From assembly GCA_024654305.1 (NCBI GenBank), contig JANLIU010000014.1:1-42383 (forward strand): DNA of 42,383 nt, given 5' to 3'. This document shows, piece after piece, positions 469 to 28,190 of the stretch. How positions within the stretch are numbered: position 1 is the stretch's first letter; each line of letters begins with the position of its first letter. Origin of the DNA: Candidatus Parcubacteria bacterium (GTDB lineage: Bacteria; Patescibacteriota; Minisyncoccia; Phycocordibacterales; Phycocordibacteraceae). The notes beneath the pieces were generated by a model. The model did no database searches and was not told the DNA's origin. It saw only the letters and a list, made by a program, of their open reading frames with translations. The position numbers and the translations under genes were made by a program.

Positions 469-2895
469 CTAGCGGCCGAGGAGGGCCGCTTCTTCAAGCT
501 CGGCAATCTGTTCAATCGTTTTGATGACCGAGTCGGGGTTGAGCGACATACTCTCGATGCCTTCACGGACGAGGAACTCCGCGAAATCGGGCAGGTCGGA
601 AGGGCCTTGTCCGCAGATGCCGATGTATTTCTTGCGCGCCATACATTTGCGGATGACCATCGAGATGAGCGCGCGGACCGATTCATCGTTTTCGTTTGCA
701 ATATGCGTCACGATGCCCGAATCGCGGTCGAGACCGAGCGTGAGCTGGGTGAGGTCGTTACTGCCGATAGACATGCCGTCGAAGAGGTCGAGAAATTCCT
801 CGGCAAGGAGGATGTTGGAAGGTATCTCGCACATCATATAGACCGGTGTAGCCTTCTCCTTGCTCTTCGCAAGCGATTTCGCGACAAGTCCCTGCTTTGC
901 CATGATACCGAGCACTTCCTCCGCCTCTTTGAGGGTGCGGCAGAAGGGGATCATCGGGATGACGTTGTCGAGCCCCATGTCTTTTCGGACTTTCACGAGC
1001 GCGCGGCATTCGAGTATGAACGCTTGCTTGAACTTCGGGTCGTAGTAGCGGGACGCTCCGCGCCAGCCGAGCATTGGATTCTCTTCTTTCGGTTCATAAG
1101 CTTCGCCGCCGAGGAGGGTCGCGTATTCATTGGTCTTGAAATCGGAGAAACGCACGATGACCGGCCGCGGAGAAAAGGCGGCGCCGATCTTTGCGATGCC
1201 GTACGCGAGATTGTCGACATAGAACTCGACCGGGTTCTTCCATCCGACGGTCTTGAGAGCGATTGCCGCGCGGAGCTTCGGCGTGAGCTTCTTGAAATTG
1301 AGGATAGCGAGCGGATGCACGCCGATATTCGAAGCGATGATGAATTCCTCGCGTGCGAGGCCCACACCCCCGACCGGTAGGAACGATTGCTCGAAGGCGA
1401 TATCCGGCGATGCGATGTTTACCATGATCTTCGTCTTCGTCTTCGGGAGTGCGCCGAGAGAATGCTCGCGTGTGGTTATCTTCGCTTTTCCTTTCGTGAC
1501 GATGCCGGCGCTGCCGGTCGTATCCACCGTGATGAGTACTCCCGTTTTGAGCACCTTGGTCGCATTGCCCGAACCTACGATAGCGGGGAGGCCGAGCTCG
1601 CGGGAAACGATCGCGGCATGGGACGTGCGTCCGCCATGGTCGGTGATAATCGCCGATGCCATCTTCATGATCGGCTCCCAATCGGGATCGGTCATGGTCG
1701 TGACCAATATCTCGCCCTTTTTGAATTCCTTTATCTGCCGCGGATTCATGATGATGCGCACGGTGCCGGTCACGGCCTTTGAGCCCACTGAAATGCCGCG
1801 CACCAGCTCCTTGCCAGCTCCGGTGACTTTGTATTCGACGAGCTTTGAAAAATCACGCTCCGCCTGCACCGTCTCGGGACGCGCTTGCACGAGGAAGAGT
1901 TCGTTCGTTATGCCGTCTTTTGCCCATTCCATATCCATCGGCGTCCAAGTCTTCGCGCGTTCGGAATAGTGCTTCTCGACAAGCGCGCCCCAGCGCGCGA
2001 GCGTCTCTATCTCGGTATCAGAGAGGACGAAGTGCGCGGCTTCACTCTCGGTCGTCTTCACTACCTTGGTCTGGATGACGCCGACTTTCCCGAACGCATA
2101 GAGCATCTTCTTATCCTTTTTACCGAGTGTTTTGCCGATGATAGGGCTTTTCACTTTTCCTATCTTCGATTTCATCACCAGATATTCGTCCGGTGTGACG
2201 CGTCCCTGCACAATCATTTCGCCGATGCCCCAGACGGCATTGATGAGGACAATGTCGCAGAAACCACTTTCAGTATCGACCGTGAACATGACCCCTGAAG
2301 CGCCCTTGTCGGAGCGGACCATTTTTTGGATGCCCACCGAGAGCGCGATCTTCATGTGGTCGAACCCTCGGTCGGCGCGATAGGAGATGGCGCGGTCGGT
2401 GAACAGCGATGCCATCGTCCAGACCGTAGCGCGCAGAACGTCTTTTTCGCCACGGATGTTGAGGTAGGTCTCTTGTTCACCGGCGAAGGAAGCGCCCGGC
2501 AAGTCTTCGGCAGTGGCGCTTGAGCGTACCGCGACGTCGGTGTTTTTCCCGTATTCCTTTTCCATCTGCGCGTACGCGGCGGAAATTTCTTTTGCGAGAT
2601 CGGCTGGAAGCGACGTTGCTCGCATCTTCTCGCGGATAAGCTTCCCGCATCGCGAGAGCTCGCTCAGATTCTTGGTGTTGAGCCTCTTGAGCGTCTTTGC
2701 GATGAACGTATCAAGTCCGGTCTCTTTCAGATAGTGGTAGTAGGCGCTCGCGGTGACCGCGAATCCTCCCGGCACCCGGACACCCTGCGGAACGAGATCG
2801 CGAATAAGTTCTCCAAGCGACGCGTTCTTGCCGCCCACCTGTGCGACATCATCCATGCCGATGTCCTGGAGCCACACAATGTGGGGTTTTTTCAT
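469..2895 (-). CDS. ppsA: Phosphoenolpyruvate synthase (pyruvate, water dikinase)
   Basis: 808-aa ORF. It has the N-terminal nucleotide-binding block VGGKNASLGE, the phosphohistidine swivel block DHGGRTSHAAIVSRELGLPAIVG and the C-terminal PEP-utilising block GMSIGSNDLTQLTLG. Length and domain order are typical of PpsA. Confidence 0.9.
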   Translation of the reverse strand: MKKPHIVWLQDIGMDDVAQVGGKNASLGELIRDLVPQGVRVPGGFAVTASAYYHYLKETGLDTFIAKTLKRLNTKNLSELSRCGKLIREKMRATSLPADLAKEISAAYAQMEKEYGKNTDVAVRSSATAEDLPGASFAGEQETYLNIRGEKDVLRATVWTMASLFTDRAISYRADRGFDHMKIALSVGIQKMVRSDKGASGVMFTVDTESGFCDIVLINAVWGIGEMIVQGRVTPDEYLVMKSKIGKVKSPIIGKTLGKKDKKMLYAFGKVGVIQTKVVKTTESEAAHFVLSDTEIETLARWGALVEKHYSERAKTWTPMDMEWAKDGITNELFLVQARPETVQAERDFSKLVEYKVTGAGKELVRGISVGSKAVTGTVRIIMNPRQIKEFKKGEILVTTMTDPDWEPIMKMASAIITDHGGRTSHAAIVSRELGLPAIVGSGNATKVLKTGVLITVDTTGSAGIVTKGKAKITTREHSLGALPKTKTKIMVNIASPDIAFEQSFLPVGGVGLAREEFIIASNIGVHPLAILNFKKLTPKLRAAIALKTVGWKNPVEFYVDNLAYGIAKIGAAFSPRPVIVRFSDFKTNEYATLLGGEAYEPKEENPMLGWRGASRYYDPKFKQAFILECRALVKVRKDMGLDNVIPMIPFCRTLKEAEEVLGIMAKQGLVAKSLAKSKEKATPVYMMCEIPSNILLAEEFLDLFDGMSIGSNDLTQLTLGLDRDSGIVTHIANENDESVRALISMVIRKCMARKKYIGICGQGPSDLPDFAEFLVREGIESMSLNPDSVIKTIEQIAELEEAALLGR

Positions 2896-2901
2896 ACGAG
2901 T

Positions 2902-4257
2902 TTATTTTTTAAGGGCAATGATGAGGTCGGACACATTAGAACCAGTATACCCGGTGCGGAGCGCATCGCCGGTCGCTGTAAAGAAATCATACGAACGGTG
3001 AGCATTGAGATATTCTTCAACCGATACATTTTTCGCGAGCGCGTGTACACGAGTCGTTTCGTCACTGATCGCACCGGCGAAATCAGTGTTGTCGTGGCCG
3101 TCGGAAGCGAACGGCATGATTAACTCATCTGGGTTGAGGTATTCAAGAGCGGCAAGCGCCATTTCTTGATTTCTCCCACCAGAGCCGGGAATTGATGGAC
3201 ACATGGTGTCCATCATGACGGTGCTTTCACCGGCGTAAAGAAGCGCTGTTTTCGCCGGTACATCGTGCAGTTTCTCTACAACGACGCGACCGGTACCACG
3301 CGCTTCTCCGTCAAAGTGGTCGTCGATAATGGCGGTAGCATATCCGCGCTTTTCCGCCTCATCTTTCATTGCGGCAAGAGCGTCCTGGCTTGAAAGAAAG
3401 AGTACATTAGCTACACGGTCAAAATATTTCTGTTCCTTCGGTGTCTCCAAGAACTCGATATTCGCCGAAGCCGTGATGTCGTACTTCGCGAGGATTGCCC
3501 GCGCATCATCCACGGTTGATGAGTCGAGTACGGTCGGACCCGATGCGATGAATCCGATATCGTTTCCGGGTACATCAGACACGATGAGAGAGACAACTTC
3601 AGCGGGATATGCCGCTTTCGCGAGCGCGCCGCCGCGCGCGAGCGAGATATGTTTGCGCACGGTATTGATGTCTTGTATCGTCGCGCCCTTTGCGGTGAGT
3701 TCCCCGAAGAGTGTGCTTTCATCGAGACAGGTCATCGGCGCGTCATGGAGACAGAGCAGGGTAGAGCCGCCGCCGGAGATGAGCATGATGACGAGATCGC
3801 TCTCGCGGCGTTCGGCGAGGAATTCAATGATGCGCTTGGTCGCGGCTTCATTCACCTCGCTCGGCAAGGGATGCGTGCCGACAAACATTTCGATTTTTCC
3901 CGATGAGGACACATCTCGCCCCGTTAGAGACAAGGACTCGGAGAGTCCTGGCCGACTTCCAGTCGGCGTCTCTAACGGGGCAAGCGCGATGCCGCCGGTA
4001 AGCCGTTCGCCCAGGAGCTCTTCAAGAGCCGTCGCTGCAGCGAACGCGCACTTGCCGACGCCGACGAAGAATATGCGCCGCCCGAGAAGCGAGTACGTTT
4101 TTCCTTCACTGCGCAGTTCGTCGTTCAGAATGCGAAGCTTGCGCTCCAAAGCCGCGCCTACATTTATAGCGGCGTAGCCCGCTTCTGCGATTTCGAGCGC
4201 ATCAGTACGCAATTCATTTTCGGCAAGCGCTTCGAAGTTCTGTATGCGGTGGCCCAT
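2902..4257 (-). CDS. Glycerate 2-kinase (DUF4147 + MOFRL domains)
   Basis: Blocks VGVGKCAFAAA, ISGGGSTLL, INTVRKHISLARGG, SLIVSDVPGNDIGFIASGP, GGRNQEMALAA and TGYTGSNVSDLIIAL align along the whole length with TM1585-type glycerate kinases. I chose the start MGHRIQNF (ATG at 4257-4255) over the track start at 4398, whose extra 47 aa look non-coding. Confidence 0.8.
   Translation of the reverse strand: MGHRIQNFEALAENELRTDALEIAEAGYAAINVGAALERKLRILNDELRSEGKTYSLLGRRIFFVGVGKCAFAAATALEELLGERLTGGIALAPLETPTGSRPGLSESLSLTGRDVSSSGKIEMFVGTHPLPSEVNEAATKRIIEFLAERRESDLVIMLISGGGSTLLCLHDAPMTCLDESTLFGELTAKGATIQDINTVRKHISLARGGALAKAAYPAEVVSLIVSDVPGNDIGFIASGPTVLDSSTVDDARAILAKYDITASANIEFLETPKEQKYFDRVANVLFLSSQDALAAMKDEAEKRGYATAIIDDHFDGEARGTGRVVVEKLHDVPAKTALLYAGESTVMMDTMCPSIPGSGGRNQEMALAALEYLNPDELIMPFASDGHDNTDFAGAISDETTRVHALAKNVSVEEYLNAHRSYDFFTATGDALRTGYTGSNVSDLIIALKK
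3918..3981. repeat. 64-nt palindromic mini-element inside the glycerate kinase CDS. It has a 14-bp terminal stem and two internal 7-bp hairpins.
   Basis: GCCCCGTTAGAGAC (3918-3931) is the exact reverse complement of GTCTCTAACGGGGC (3968-3981). The interior holds AGGACTC-gga-GAGTCCT and GCCGACT-tcc-AGTCGGC. It encodes the extra segment ..LETPTGSRPGLSESLSLTG.. relative to the equivalent loop of TM1585-type glycerate kinases. The CCCGTTAGAG/CTCTAACGGG core recurs at 19128-19177. Confidence 0.8.
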
Positions 4258-25893: not shown

Positions 25894-26247
25894 TTAAGGG
25901 CGACCGTATTTGTCTTCAAGGCGCTTGATATCTTCTTCATCAAAATCGCCAAAGGCAATCTCGAGAAACGTAGTACCACCCGGACCACCGGTGACGCGAT
26001 GCTCGTTTCCGCGCGGACAGAAGAATGAACTGCCCTCATGCGCCTGATGTTCTTTGTCGCCGATGAGAATGACGCCTGAACCCTTGATGACGTGCCAAAA
26101 TTCATCACGGTGTTCGTGAGTCTGTAGGCTAAAATATTCTCCGGCGTTGACCGTGATTATTTTTACCGTCGTCTTCTCGTTGAGCGTGAAGCGCTCAAAG
26201 TTGCCCCACGGGCGATTTTCTTTTTCGTAGTGCGAGAGTCCTTCCAT
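25894..26247 (-). CDS. Cupin-domain protein related to the type II phosphomannose isomerase C-terminal domain
   Basis: 117 aa. RPWGNFERF..VKIITVNAGEYFSLQTHEHRDEFWHVIKGSG..GNEHRV is the ManC-type cupin signature. Confidence 0.7.
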   Translation of the reverse strand: MEGLSHYEKENRPWGNFERFTLNEKTTVKIITVNAGEYFSLQTHEHRDEFWHVIKGSGVILIGDKEHQAHEGSSFFCPRGNEHRVTGGPGGTTFLEIAFGDFDEEDIKRLEDKYGRP

Positions 26248-26338
26248 TGTGGAAGTATATCACTATGATTCTGTCGTTGGTGGAATACGTATAAAGTAGA
26301 GTAATATTATCCACAGGCTCTGTTTTACTTTAGAAGTT

Positions 26339-26956
26339 GTGAGTGAGAGAATGATACTAATGGATAAGAAGTTGTTAGAACTTTGGTATCTGCGGGATAA
26401 GAAGTCCGTACATACTATCGCCAGTGAGCTTAACTGTTCCGATGGGAAGGTCAATTATTGGATGGAGAAACATTTCATTCCCAAACGTTCAATCAGCGAT
26501 GCAATTTATACGAAGCATAATCCAAAAGGAGATCCTTTTTCGCCAAAAATACTCCAGACAAACGGGGATTCTTTTCTTTTCGGTCTTGGCATAGGCCTGT
26601 ATTGGGGTGAAGGTACGAAAAAGAATCCTGGTCAGGTTCGTTTGGGTAATACCGATCCGTACCTTATCAGAGCTTTCCTGATTTTCTTGCGAAAAATGTA
26701 CAACATCGATAATTCAAAATTGCGTTTTGCCATTCAGATTTTTACCGATATGGATCAGAAAAAAGAAGAGAAGTTTTGGCGAGATTTTCTTAAGGTAGAA
26801 GCGAAACAATTTTATAAAACGATCAATACGCGTTCCGGCAGTATCGGAACATACCGAGAGAAATCTAAACACGGAGTACTGACGGTCTATTTTGGCAATA
26901 AGAAGTTGCGGGATATTTTAATTGATGAAATTGAAAAATTGAAGGAATTCAGTTAG
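26339..26956 (+). CDS. Putative single-motif LAGLIDADG-type homing endonuclease with an N-terminal HTH, free-standing
   Basis: 205 aa with a GTG start at 26339 and alternative ATGs at 26351 and 26360. The N-terminal LLELWYLRDKKSVHTIASELNCSDGKVNYWMEKHFI is HTH-like. FLFGLGIGLYWGEGTK resembles the LAGLIDADG motif (L.GL..GDG/GEG). The gene is AT-rich and ends 18 nt before an intron-containing tRNA. Confidence 0.45.
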   Translation: MSERMILMDKKLLELWYLRDKKSVHTIASELNCSDGKVNYWMEKHFIPKRSISDAIYTKHNPKGDPFSPKILQTNGDSFLFGLGIGLYWGEGTKKNPGQVRLGNTDPYLIRAFLIFLRKMYNIDNSKLRFAIQIFTDMDQKKEEKFWRDFLKVEAKQFYKTINTRSGSIGTYREKSKHGVLTVYFGNKKLRDILIDEIEKLKEFS

Positions 26957-26974
26957 TATTCGACGGTGCGATAG

Positions 26975-27243
26975 GCCGAGATAGCTCAGTTGGTAGAGCA
27001 GCGCCATGGTGGGCCGCAAGCCCCGCCCACTTTTTTGGTAACAGATTAGTGAATCCTGAATTACGGTTAACGTCCACATAAACGGATAAGACCGTGGCAC
27101 CGGCGATATGTCGGGGCCCGAACGACTGACAAGGGTGTCCAGCAGTTTGCGGGACAAAGATACAGTCTAGCCCTCCCGTATACTTAAAGGGGAGGTGTAA
27201 GCGAAGGCGCAGGTCGTCGGTTCAATCCCGACTCTCGGCTCCA
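26975..27243 (+). tRNA. tRNA-Thr (anticodon GGU) interrupted by a group I intron between positions 36 and 37. CCA is encoded.
   Basis: The 5' exon is 26975-27010 (GCCGAGATAGCTCAGTTGGTAGAGCAGCGCCATGGT). The 3' exon is 27204-27240 (AAGGCGCAGGTCGTCGGTTCAATCCCGACTCTCGGCT) plus CCA. Joined, they give a canonical 73-nt cloverleaf very similar to E. coli tRNA-Thr(GGU): acceptor GCCGAGA/TCTCGGC, anticodon stem GCGCC/GGCGC, loop ATGGTAA. Confidence 0.8.
27011..27203 (+). ncRNA. Group I intron (about 193 nt, no internal ORF) in the tRNA-Thr anticodon loop
   Basis: The 5' splice site follows U36. A P1 helix GGU|GGG pairs with CCCGCC, giving the canonical U.G wobble (U36.G15), and is capped by a GCAA tetraloop. 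The intron ends in G (27203). Candidate P7 is GACTG (27124-27128) paired with CAGTC (27163-27167), preceded by a J8/7 S-element-like AAGATACAGTC (27157-27167; compare consensus AAGAUAUAGUC). Candidate P9 is CCTCCC/GGGAGG. Confidence 0.7.
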
Positions 27244-27254
27244 GAATCAAACCC
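27239..27254 (+). repeat. Left copy of a 16-nt direct repeat, CTCCAGAATCAAACCC, spanning the 3' end of tRNA-Thr
   Basis: Identical to 28191-28206. It covers the last tRNA nucleotides, the CCA and 11 nt downstream. Confidence 0.7.
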
Positions 27255-27304
27255 TATTTTCGGGGAATCCTTTTTTGCCTGTGCAAGATAAAACAGAATG
27301 TAAC

Positions 27305-28063
27305 CTATTCTTGAGGAGCTAACAGAACTAATTTTGAAAGAAGGATGCTCAAATCTGTCGCATCAACGGCTCCGTCGGCATTAAGGTCCATGTCTTTATT
27401 TTTTGGTATCCCCCAATTAGCAATGAAAATGCTCAAATCAGAAAGATCCACTTTCCCATCGTTGTTTAGATCTTCTGCTGGATATGGAACTACGGGTGGC
27501 GTTACTATACTGAAATTTGCAAGTTGGCTTGGAACAGTTACGGCAGTTCCTAACCCGTCGTTCGCAAGCACATGTGTATTAATGAGCGATACTGTAATCA
27601 GTCCGGCAGTTTTTGCACGAAAGACCACCGTAAGAATATTGCCAGCGATGCCAAGGAAACCAGGGGTCGGTAGGCCGCCGGAAAAAATGATGGTGTTGGT
27701 AGTTGTAGAAAAATGTGGATTAACCGGTACCCATAACGTATTTATTGAATTTTTTGTGGAAATGGATTTTATCTCAAGTTTGTCGGTCGGGAAAACAATC
27801 TCACCTTCAACGGCATTAATGGGGTCCTTCGTTGAATCAAGAAGCACCGATACGGCGATAAGGTCGTTCGGTTTGAAAACTCCACTTGCAGGGCTAAAAT
27901 ACATTCTTGTCTCCAATGCATCTGCCCGTATAGTTGTCTCCACATTTTTATCGCGTGTCAGAAGATAGGCGATAGTATTAAAATTAAAAATGACTAACAG
28001 CAAAAGAAAACCGACAACGAGTGCCAACCAGTGTTTTTTGAGATGTTCAACAGCAAGGTTCAT
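27305..28063 (-). CDS. Cohesin-domain protein with C-terminal type I dockerin repeats, membrane-anchored
   Basis: The start MNLAVEHLKKHW (ATG at 28063) is followed by a TM anchor. The cohesin-like block is DLIAVSVLLDSTKDPINAVEGEIVFPTDKLEI. Two dockerin EF-hand-like repeats are present: DLNNDGKVDLSDLSIF and DLNADGAVDATDLSIL. The gene is AT-rich. Confidence 0.65.
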   Translation of the reverse strand: MNLAVEHLKKHWLALVVGFLLLLVIFNFNTIAYLLTRDKNVETTIRADALETRMYFSPASGVFKPNDLIAVSVLLDSTKDPINAVEGEIVFPTDKLEIKSISTKNSINTLWVPVNPHFSTTTNTIIFSGGLPTPGFLGIAGNILTVVFRAKTAGLITVSLINTHVLANDGLGTAVTVPSQLANFSIVTPPVVPYPAEDLNNDGKVDLSDLSIFIANWGIPKNKDMDLNADGAVDATDLSILLSKLVLLAPQE

Positions 28064-28190
28064 AGACCACCTAATAATAATACCACCTCCCACACGTCAA
28101 TCTTTTAATTGCGCATTACTTTTGCGATCTCCCCGAGGCGCGAGAAGAAGGTCAGGGGGCGAAATAGGTTCTAGCGCGGTTTAATAGGGT

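Follow-up and report, generated by a model that had tools for sequence, protein, structure and literature searches.

Can a tRNA gene whose anticodon loop is interrupted by 193 nucleotides (nt) still be functional, and what is the sequence that interrupts it? A locus in a 42,383-nt stretch of DNA from a Candidatus Parcubacteria bacterium (assembly GCA_024654305.1, contig JANLIU010000014.1, positions 1 to 42,383; hereafter the window) raises this question. A first-pass annotation, made from the letters alone, had proposed that positions 26975–27243 hold a tRNA-Thr(GGU) gene split by a compact group I intron without an open reading frame (ORF). We conclude, with a probability of roughly 85%, that this interval is a functional tRNA-Thr(GGU) gene with a self-splicing, ORF-less group I intron, that the intron belongs to a site-specific mobile family, and that an ORF just upstream encodes a putative homing endonuclease. 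The most interesting part of the locus – the linked ORF family and the three allelic states found at the site among relatives – lies outside the interval that was originally singled out.

The split tRNA-Thr(GGU) gene and its intron

The gene is easily missed. ARAGORN in default mode did not call the split gene at 26975–27243, and Rfam at gathering thresholds, run on the whole window, gave no match there; the intact tRNAs that these searches found in the window are four (Met, Asp, Thr-CGU, and Gln). With introns allowed (-i), ARAGORN identified a 76-nt cloverleaf with a 193-nt insert, placed the splice at 34|35, and called the product Arg(GCG). This placement and one at 36|37 are related by a two-base slide, and their sole difference is which of the duplicated bases go to the exon. 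Only the 36|37 placement gives both U as the last exon nucleotide (position −1) and G as the last intron nucleotide (omega). We rejected Arg(GCG) with an intron at 34|35: it has a G at −1, the D loop carries U20 rather than A20, the D arm is the same as that of the tRNA-Thr(CGU) in the window, and the intron-less orthologue reads GGUAAGG. The spliced cloverleaf also has G1-C72 and C2-G71.

In a syntenic relative (L126) the tRNA is uninterrupted (...CCATGGTAAGGCG...) and equals the window exons joined at 27010|27204, 3′ trailer included. Because of this identity, the junction is fixed and Arg(GCG) is excluded. The proposal of a tRNA-Thr(GGU) gene split after position 36, with halves 193 nt apart, is borne out by this match to an intron-less allele. 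Over its whole length the spliced tRNA could be aligned with Escherichia coli genes annotated as tRNA-Thr (81.6% identity), in line with the resemblance claimed for the joined tRNA and its E. coli isoacceptor.

Since the Rfam group I intron model (RF00028) gave no match on the region, we searched for relatives of the insert with a pattern taken from its putative P7/J8/7 core, ACGACTRA-N(10-40)-AAGATAYAGTC, of which the window has a single occurrence (expected number, 0.00). Scanning one genome per Genome Taxonomy Database (GTDB) species identified at least 120 loci. At no fewer than 90 of these – at least 90, each in a different species – the pattern lies inside a split tRNA in which the sole U(−1)/G(omega) splice within the anticodon loop falls after nt 36. 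The anticodon is GGU in each of the 90 homologue loci, within the loop [A/U]UGGUAA. Carrier hosts are overwhelmingly Patescibacteria metagenome-assembled genomes (MAGs), including Saccharibacteria, Paceibacterota, Minisyncoccia, and many ‘Candidatus X-bacteria’; a small number carry other labels, among them the cultured Niastella populi CCTCC AB 208238 (L066, contig NZ_LWBP01000002.1). GCA_054639835.1 and the Wolfebacteria sequence CP011209.1 are further examples of carriers. The window intron can be aligned with its homologues over its full length (the best among the matches listed is L092, at 80% identity). Judged by their sequences, these introns are a large, coherent family with a single insertion site, present in many Patescibacteria and in a small number of other bacteria.

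Family introns range from 158 to 243 nt. The idea that the window copy is among the smallest group I introns therefore holds as regards compactness but not as regards size, 193 nt being mid-range in its own family. The shortest member, at L044:5918-6089 (plus strand), is 158 nt long and lacks any P9 (...CAGUCUAGCCAAAAGCG|AAG); if it splices, it is a very small natural group I intron.

Comparative evidence for an RNA fold came from an alignment of the 90 homologues (A1), from which the window was excluded, with pairs counted on a P1–P9 structure that includes a P3 pseudoknot. Standard pairs fill 93.6% of cells, compared with 32–45% when the 3′ partners are slid by one to three columns, and changes on both sides occur at 36 of the 52 pairs; none of 500 shuffles reached the observed pairing measures. 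Covariation is found in P1, P2, the P3 pseudoknot, P5, P6, P8, and P9. The P3 pairs (A1 columns 91–93 with 227–229) are 99.6% paired, with compensatory changes at each. The splice-site U.G wobble is present in all 90 homologues; their splice sites had been chosen by the U(−1)/G(omega) rule, and the G that partners the wobble played no part in that selection. Compensatory changes in seven helices, the pseudoknot among them, across at least 90 species indicate selection on RNA structure. A covariance model built from A1 (R1, likewise without the window) gave one match in the window, at 27004–27210 (model positions 1–204, 172.1 bits, E = 8.4e-56), and the second-best match there scored 4.7 bits. 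We take the group I fold of the insert to be well supported by these comparisons.

The individual elements are collected in Table 1. Within P1, the loop (CCGCAAGC) begins with a C-C mismatch followed by C(GCAA)G, so the P1 helix and U36 wobble described in the first-pass annotation stand, but its clean GCAA cap does not. Its assignments of P7, J8/7, P9, and the omega G all proved correct, with P9 (like P1) backed by covariation in the 90 homologues; P7 and J8/7, though correctly placed, never vary in the family, in part because the search pattern fixed them. In P7, the pair G27124-C27167 adjoins the bulged C27123, a layout that fits the G-a-GACUA/UAGUCC of published seed introns with two compensatory differences. 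We take this pair to be the guanosine-binding position, as in the Azoarcus and Tetrahymena structures.

Table 1. Features of the split tRNA gene, its intron, and the sequence immediately upstream (positions in the window).
Feature	Position	Strand	Basis or remark
Free-standing ORF, 205 amino acids (aa)	26339–26956	+	ORF list; ends 19 nt before the tRNA; putative homing endonuclease
Promoter-like site, TTGAAA-17-TAGTAT	26931–26959	+	Consensus scan; 16 nt upstream of the tRNA; presumed function
5′ exon of tRNA-Thr(GGU), nt 1–36, ending G34 G35 U36	26975–27010	+	Identical to the intron-less tRNA of L126
Intron, 193 nt, ORF-less, group I	27011–27203	+	Family model R1 and covariation in 90 homologues
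P1, GGUGGG/CCCGCC	27008–27013 / 27022–27027	+	Splice-site wobble U27010.G27025; intron-side pairs covary
P2 hairpin	27028–27037 / 27042–27051	+	GUAA (GNRA) loop at 27038–27041; all 9 pairs covary in the family
P3, CCU/GGG	27055–27057 / 27133–27135	+	Pseudoknot across P7; compensatory changes at all three pairs
P4, ACGGUU/GACCGU	27063–27068 / 27090–27095	+	Encloses P5; invariant in the family
P5, GUCC/GGAU	27072–27075 / 27084–27087	+	All 4 pairs covary
P6/P6a hairpin	27096–27118	+	4 of 5 pairs covary
P7, A, bulged C, GACUG/CAGUCU	27122, 27123, 27124–27128 / 27163–27168	+	Invariant in the family
P8 hairpin, UGUCC/GGACA	27136–27140 / 27152–27156	+	All 5 pairs covary
J8/7, AAGAUA	27157–27162	+	With the P7 3′ strand forms the ‘S element’ (27157–27168)
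P9 hairpin, CCUCCC/GGGAGG	27172–27177 / 27190–27195	+	All 5 pairs covary
Omega G, last intron nt	27203	+	Junction confirmed by the intron-less allele of L126
3′ exon of tRNA-Thr(GGU), nt 37–76, discriminator U, CCA encoded	27204–27243	+	Identical to the intron-less tRNA of L126

Self-splicing of the window intron would be expected to follow the two-step guanosine mechanism of group I introns. The primary transcript would adopt the P1–P9 fold, P3/P7 pseudoknot included; an external guanosine held by the G-C pair of P7 would attack after U27010, inside the P1 U.G wobble; and the omega G27203 would then replace the guanosine, so that the exons are ligated at 27010|27204.

The P1 hairpin could also be read, together with CACUUUUUUG (27008–27037), as a terminator. 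We rejected this candidate, as such a match is within chance expectation and its U-run is not conserved in the family.

We also considered that the locus might be a tRNA pseudogene, with an inert insertion, an RNA that stays unspliced, and ACC/ACU codons read by another tRNA. Such a reading would suit the lack of an Rfam group I match, the mismatches in the P2 of the window, and a relative (L156) with two neighbouring copies, one intact and without the intron, the other with the intron and a degenerate-looking D arm. We nevertheless hold it to be very improbable: the window exons do not differ from the sequence of an orthologue that lacks the intron and looks functional, the insert has been kept in at least 90 species with the compensatory changes described above, and the insertion is always exactly at 36|37, with the U.G wobble and the omega G. 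The two copies in L156 are in tandem (2640–3045, minus strand), the second about 50 nt downstream of the first and carrying a family intron that scores 175.9 bits with R1; this pair may represent a duplication or a decaying allele.

Relation to known group I introns

The window intron has the features by which group I introns are recognized – a U.G in P1, an omega G, a P3–P9 core (with a P3/P7 pseudoknot, a P4–P6 stack, and P8), a P7 G-C pair beside a bulge, and J8/7. It is also found in the classical setting of tRNA introns, being ORF-less, about 200–250 nt in size class, and located in the anticodon loop. With the subgroup IC3 introns of Azoarcus tRNA-Ile(CAU) and Agrobacterium tRNA-Arg(CCU) it shares insertion at 36|37, a length of ~200 nt without an ORF, P1–P9 without peripheral domains, a GNRA L2 loop, and an anticodon that forms part of P1. 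It differs from them in having a much shorter P3, a P7 of GACUG/CAGUC with an A-U outer pair, and a different host tRNA, and no pairing of a GAAA L9 loop with an 11-nt receptor is evident in it; some copies in its family, unlike introns of the Azoarcus/Anabaena type (IC3), have no P9.

How close this relationship is can be gauged with a second covariance model (R2), which covers the core of classical introns from P3 to the P7 3′ strand and was built from 19 published seeds. Its top match in the window was at 27053–27170 (13.0 bits, rough E 0.026), with P3, P4, P6, P7, P8, and J8/7 aligned collinearly. On family members R2 scored 12–23 bits, compared with 52–114 bits on classical introns in other tRNAs of the same contigs. 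IC3 or Azoarcus-type membership, which the first-pass annotation had implied, is accordingly not sustained, given 13 bits with the classical model and a negative result with RF00028. The window intron is truly related to the classical tRNA introns but has diverged from them to about the limit of detection by published models.

These comparisons bear on a second alternative, under which the insert has descended vertically as a standard IC3 intron, like those of Azoarcus tRNA-Ile and Agrobacterium tRNA-Arg, and the ORF is an unrelated neighbour. The 36|37 insertion is shared with the published Ile2.5Ug and Arg.5Ug classes, the compact P1–P9 and the GNRA L2 loop are as expected of such introns, and the core is collinear with R2. 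The gap in R2 scores between family members and classical introns on the same contigs, with RF00028 behaving alike, argues against it, as does the distribution of the intron and the ORF described in the next section.

The first-pass annotation was aware of no earlier report of a group I intron in tRNA-Thr(GGU). This claim to novelty fails, since the Thr.5Ug setting has already been published. A survey of ~80,000 genomes brought the tRNA settings known to harbour group I introns to 21, up from 4 (Williams 2020, bioRxiv 10.1101/2020.01.27.920355). Its seeds include Rba53.Thr.5Ug, Mti5.Thr.3Ug, and Pgr210.Thr.2Ug, the first of which begins ggU|A..., that is, with anticodon GGU and the intron after its third base. 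The family described here is itself present in public genomes of at least 90 species. Like Thr.5Ug, the window intron interrupts tRNA-Thr(GGU) after the third anticodon base (nt 36), with U(−1) and an omega G, and both occur in candidate-phyla genomes. The Thr.5Ug seed differs in being a 261-nt classical IC3-like intron (core GUAGAGACCA...AUGGUCC, P4 UCGGGG), whereas the window family has another core sequence, a 3-base-pair (bp) P3, and lengths of 158–243 nt, and is almost invisible to the Rfam model used in the first phase of that survey. The intron represents a known kind, and its subfamily is divergent and under-annotated.

Classical group I introns (37–72 bits with Rfam, 52–114 bits with R2) occur on several contigs that carry the family, at L078:2057-2361, L055:1885-2190, L076:2728-3026, L023:2661-2954, L089:7162-7436, L010:2870-3153, and L099:907-1193. 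The tRNAs that they split are Leu-CAA, Met-CAU, Asp-GUC, Tyr-GUA, Ser-GGA, and Ser-UGA; ARAGORN called split Leu-CAA, Met, Asp, Tyr, and Ser genes on eight family contigs. Another contig (L058, 7.6 kb) has seven or eight separate R2 matches of 14–57 bits within 3 kb (840–3800); ARAGORN called no split tRNA on it, and the matches may be an array of introns or of intron-derived repeats. The core pattern is also present in a Heimdallarchaeota MAG (L016; 15 bits with R2 at 1407–1489) and a Hermodarchaeota MAG (L049). No split tRNA was found in either, and these matches could reflect mis-binning or an archaeal group I intron. A blastn search of the window locus against a phage collection matched the tRNA exons only and revealed no phage relative.

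The upstream ORF and the allelic states of the site

The ORF upstream of the tRNA likely starts at the ATG at 26360, which would give a protein of 198 aa, as in most homologues. Its family has at least 1192 homologues, all annotated as ‘hypothetical’ and none with a Pfam domain. The protein has an N-terminal helix-turn-helix (HTH) and a C-terminal alpha/beta domain with a GLYWGEGT motif, within a stretch (GLGxGLYWGEG) that is invariant and resembles LAGLIDADG. Profile matches among 67 ORF relatives were weak: HTH_23 in 41, NUMOD1 in four, and LAGLIDADG_3 in four (best E = 0.038). The N-terminus of the window ORF matches PHROG ‘HNH endonuclease’ families. AlphaFold (AF2) models of the full protein and of the C-terminal domain were confident, with predicted local distance difference test (pLDDT) scores of 89.7 and 87.8, respectively. 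The best endonuclease-related Foldseek match of these models, a weak one, was the endonuclease domain of the TliVMA intein (TMq 0.40, E = 0.14), and matches in BFVD were to predicted viral endonucleases, again weak. We did not adopt a classification as a LAGLIDADG enzyme, given no Pfam LAGLIDADG match for the window protein and no significant Foldseek match in the Protein Data Bank (PDB). Because sequence and fold matches are only weak, we assign the ORF to no nuclease family.

ORF and intron are linked in many genomes. At 36 of the 84 family loci with enough upstream sequence, an ORF homologue precedes the tRNA in the same orientation, with its end no more than ~130 nt from the start of the tRNA; two weak paralogue matches at a distance of ~300 nt (L037, L089) go with other split tRNAs. 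At ten loci (L004, L009, L017, L021, L026, L043, L048, L062, L074, L085) the ORF overlaps the tRNA by 9 nt, and its stop codon is the tRNA’s own U8-A9-G10 (TAG), which is universally conserved. Fragmentary or frameshifted ORF copies are found at L007, L050, L057, L059, L091, L118, and L135. The link also appears when the ORF is the starting point: four homologues picked by protein similarity alone (57–86% identity) have the family intron downstream in six of six determinable places, with the R1 match starting 48–66 nt past the ORF end, in very different gene neighbourhoods.

We also asked whether ORF paralogues are general neighbours of other split tRNAs, a notion that was only partly borne out: one lies ~320 nt from a split tRNA-Asp (L023), and those in L076 and L033 are on the opposite strand. 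A distant paralogue (~29% identical) lies ~55 nt upstream of the split tRNA-Tyr in L089.

The site itself was compared among close relatives by fetching 80 metagenome loci via the cupin gene (25894–26247) on the other side of the ORF. Three allelic states were observed. An intron-less tRNA-Thr(GGU) without the ORF is found at 48–49 loci (e.g., L122, the closest relative), the intron without the ORF at four (L123, L154, L163, L198), and the intron with the ORF at eight (L124, L136, L164, L183, L184, L199, L135, L181), of which L135 and L181 are cut by contig ends. The ORF beside an intron-less tRNA was seen at none of these cupin-syntenic metagenome loci; a further locus, L130, has the ORF on a contig that stops short of the tRNA. 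The association between ORF and intron at these sites had a P of ~2e-7 in a hypergeometric test, a value that ignores the relatedness of the loci. The states are interleaved among relatives, in that a cupin identity of 90% goes with an empty site, 88% with the intron only, and 87% with intron and ORF.

A five-way alignment (A6) resolves these states into two separate insertions in a conserved arrangement of cupin, promoter-like block, and tRNA. One, of ~650 nt, holds the ORF and lies between the cupin start codon and the TTGAAA-17-TAGTAT block; the other is the 193-nt intron in the anticodon loop. The last codons and stop of the ORF run into the block, which is common to ORF-bearing, intron-only, and empty alleles. 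The ORF has a GC content of 0.387, compared with 0.525 for the window.

The interleaving of presence and absence at one syntenic site speaks against simple vertical descent. Together with the association of ORF and intron across widely differing genomic surroundings, and with the scores discussed above, it leaves an ordinary, vertically inherited IC3 intron beside an unrelated ORF as an unlikely account of the locus.

Base composition also varies around the site. The stretch 26001–28000 has the lowest GC content of the window (0.435, compared with ~0.53) and covers the ORF and a dockerin-domain gene (27305–28093, GC 0.423); another neighbour encodes an ice-binding-like protein with a PG_binding_1 domain. 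Both neighbours, like the named source organisms of the closest ORF homologues, point to a Patescibacteria/Minisyncoccota genome.

Proposed homing and its alternatives

The site thus combines an ORF-less intron and a free-standing ORF at one locus with three allelic states among relatives, which is the layout of collaborative homing. We infer that the element is mobile or was so recently, and that it moves by homing. At one chromosomal site in close relatives there is nothing, the intron only, or the intron together with an ORF of ~200 aa just upstream of the tRNA promoter. The ORF product, acting as a free-standing homing endonuclease, would cut intron-less tRNA-Thr(GGU) alleles; the intron would shield its own allele, and repair would copy in both parts. 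Intron-only alleles and those with a decayed ORF would be the expected later stages. The role that we consider most likely for the ORF, with odds of about even, is that of a free-standing homing endonuclease directed at the uninterrupted anticodon-loop sequence, intron and ORF being co-converted.

Collaborative homing is known from phages, where an ORF-less psbA intron is paired with the free-standing F-CphI in cyanophage S-PM2, and from mobE/I-TevIII of T4 (PMC3984707; PMC2790892; PMC6083498). As in those systems, the ORF is confined to alleles that carry the intron, and empty, intron-only, and intron-plus-ORF alleles coexist. In contrast to them, the interrupted gene here encodes a tRNA and lies on a bacterial chromosome, rather than being a phage protein gene, and the ORF family has no recognized nuclease domain. 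A bacterial intron-encoded homing endonuclease that acts on a tRNA anticodon-loop intron site has a similar target, whereas the candidate gene here lies outside the tRNA, upstream of its promoter. Introns in rRNA with LAGLIDADG homing endonucleases are described from the Candidate Phyla Radiation (CPR)/Patescibacteria (Brown 2015 and Tsurumaki 2024, cited in PMC12641178 and PMC8172020). Such introns resemble the present family in host phylum, in residing in structural RNA genes, and in their sporadic distribution; they differ in that their ORFs are intron-internal and match Pfam LAGLIDADG, in contrast to the free-standing window ORF with no significant match.

Several observations weigh against the interpretation that we favour. 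For the intron, the scan with RF00028 that had been proposed as a check was negative for 26975–27243, with no match in 26900–27320 even at E <= 10. The same model matched no family intron on 18 homologue loci, and on eight further loci, with eight Thr(GGU)-family introns, it matched a single one of these (23 bits). R2 ties the window intron to the classical introns only weakly (13 bits). In the window copy, P2 has two U-U mismatches, and P3 has only three pairs, one of them a G.U. The invariance of U(−1) and the omega G among homologues is circular, because the rule was used to place the splice; P4, P7, and J8/7 are invariant and therefore yield no covariation evidence, and the invariance of P7 and J8/7 was imposed by the search. 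For the ORF, the protein had no significant match in Pfam, NCBIfam, or the PDB, the last searched both with the single sequence and with a profile; Foldseek, with the full-length and C-terminal-domain models, found nothing at E <= 0.001; and the LAGLIDADG-like motif may be fortuitous. As regards RF00028, classical introns on the same eight loci were matched at 37–72 bits, and because this positive control works and R1 matches, we read the negative results as low sensitivity of the model and not as absence of an intron.

The points concerning the protein bear on a third alternative, in which the intron is as described and the ORF is not a homing endonuclease – it would instead be a maturase, a DNA-binding regulator, or a selfish gene settled near a tRNA promoter. 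No nuclease fold or motif is confirmed in the protein, and its clearest domain is an HTH. The 3′ end of the ORF overlaps the promoter-like block, or at ten loci the tRNA itself, which suggests coupled expression. LAGLIDADG proteins, moreover, can act as maturases. Against these points stands the finding that the intron occurs without any ORF at 48 of the 84 family loci and at the four syntenic loci, which implies that splicing is independent of a cis-encoded helper; a maturase role is less likely for the same reason, most intron copies having no adjacent ORF. In addition, the fragmentary and frameshifted copies fit the decay cycle of homing endonuclease genes, the ORF was never seen with an intron-less allele at cupin-syntenic loci, and the weak fold and profile matches lean towards endonucleases and NUMOD1. 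We regard a non-endonuclease function as a possibility to be kept in mind, though not one that we favour.

A broader reading is that intron and ORF together make up a two-part mobile element not described as such – a distinct minimal subclass of group I introns and a new family of homing endonucleases, spread by collaborative homing. The intron part would be defined by its length of 158–243 nt, a 3-bp P3, the occasional lack of P9, specificity for U36|A37 of tRNA-Thr(GGU), and its being missed by Rfam; the ORF part by at least 1192 members, no Pfam domain or solved structural relative, insertion upstream of the tRNA promoter, and a spread across Patescibacteria and into Bacteroidota. We advance this reading only tentatively.

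The family has practical consequences for the genomes that carry it. Because default tRNA finders and Rfam miss the gene, carrier genomes appear to lack tRNA-Thr(GGU), an apparent loss that matters to completeness checks of reduced Patescibacteria genomes; the family-specific covariance model recovers the split gene cleanly. As naturally occurring group I ribozymes of very small size, the shortest measuring 158 nt and having no P9, the introns would lend themselves to work on minimal ribozymes. The three-state polymorphism at one syntenic site provides a compact natural example, in uncultured bacteria, of the gain-and-decay cycle of homing. If the ORF does encode a nuclease, it would represent a new homing-endonuclease family with a 20–30-bp target in a universally conserved tRNA.

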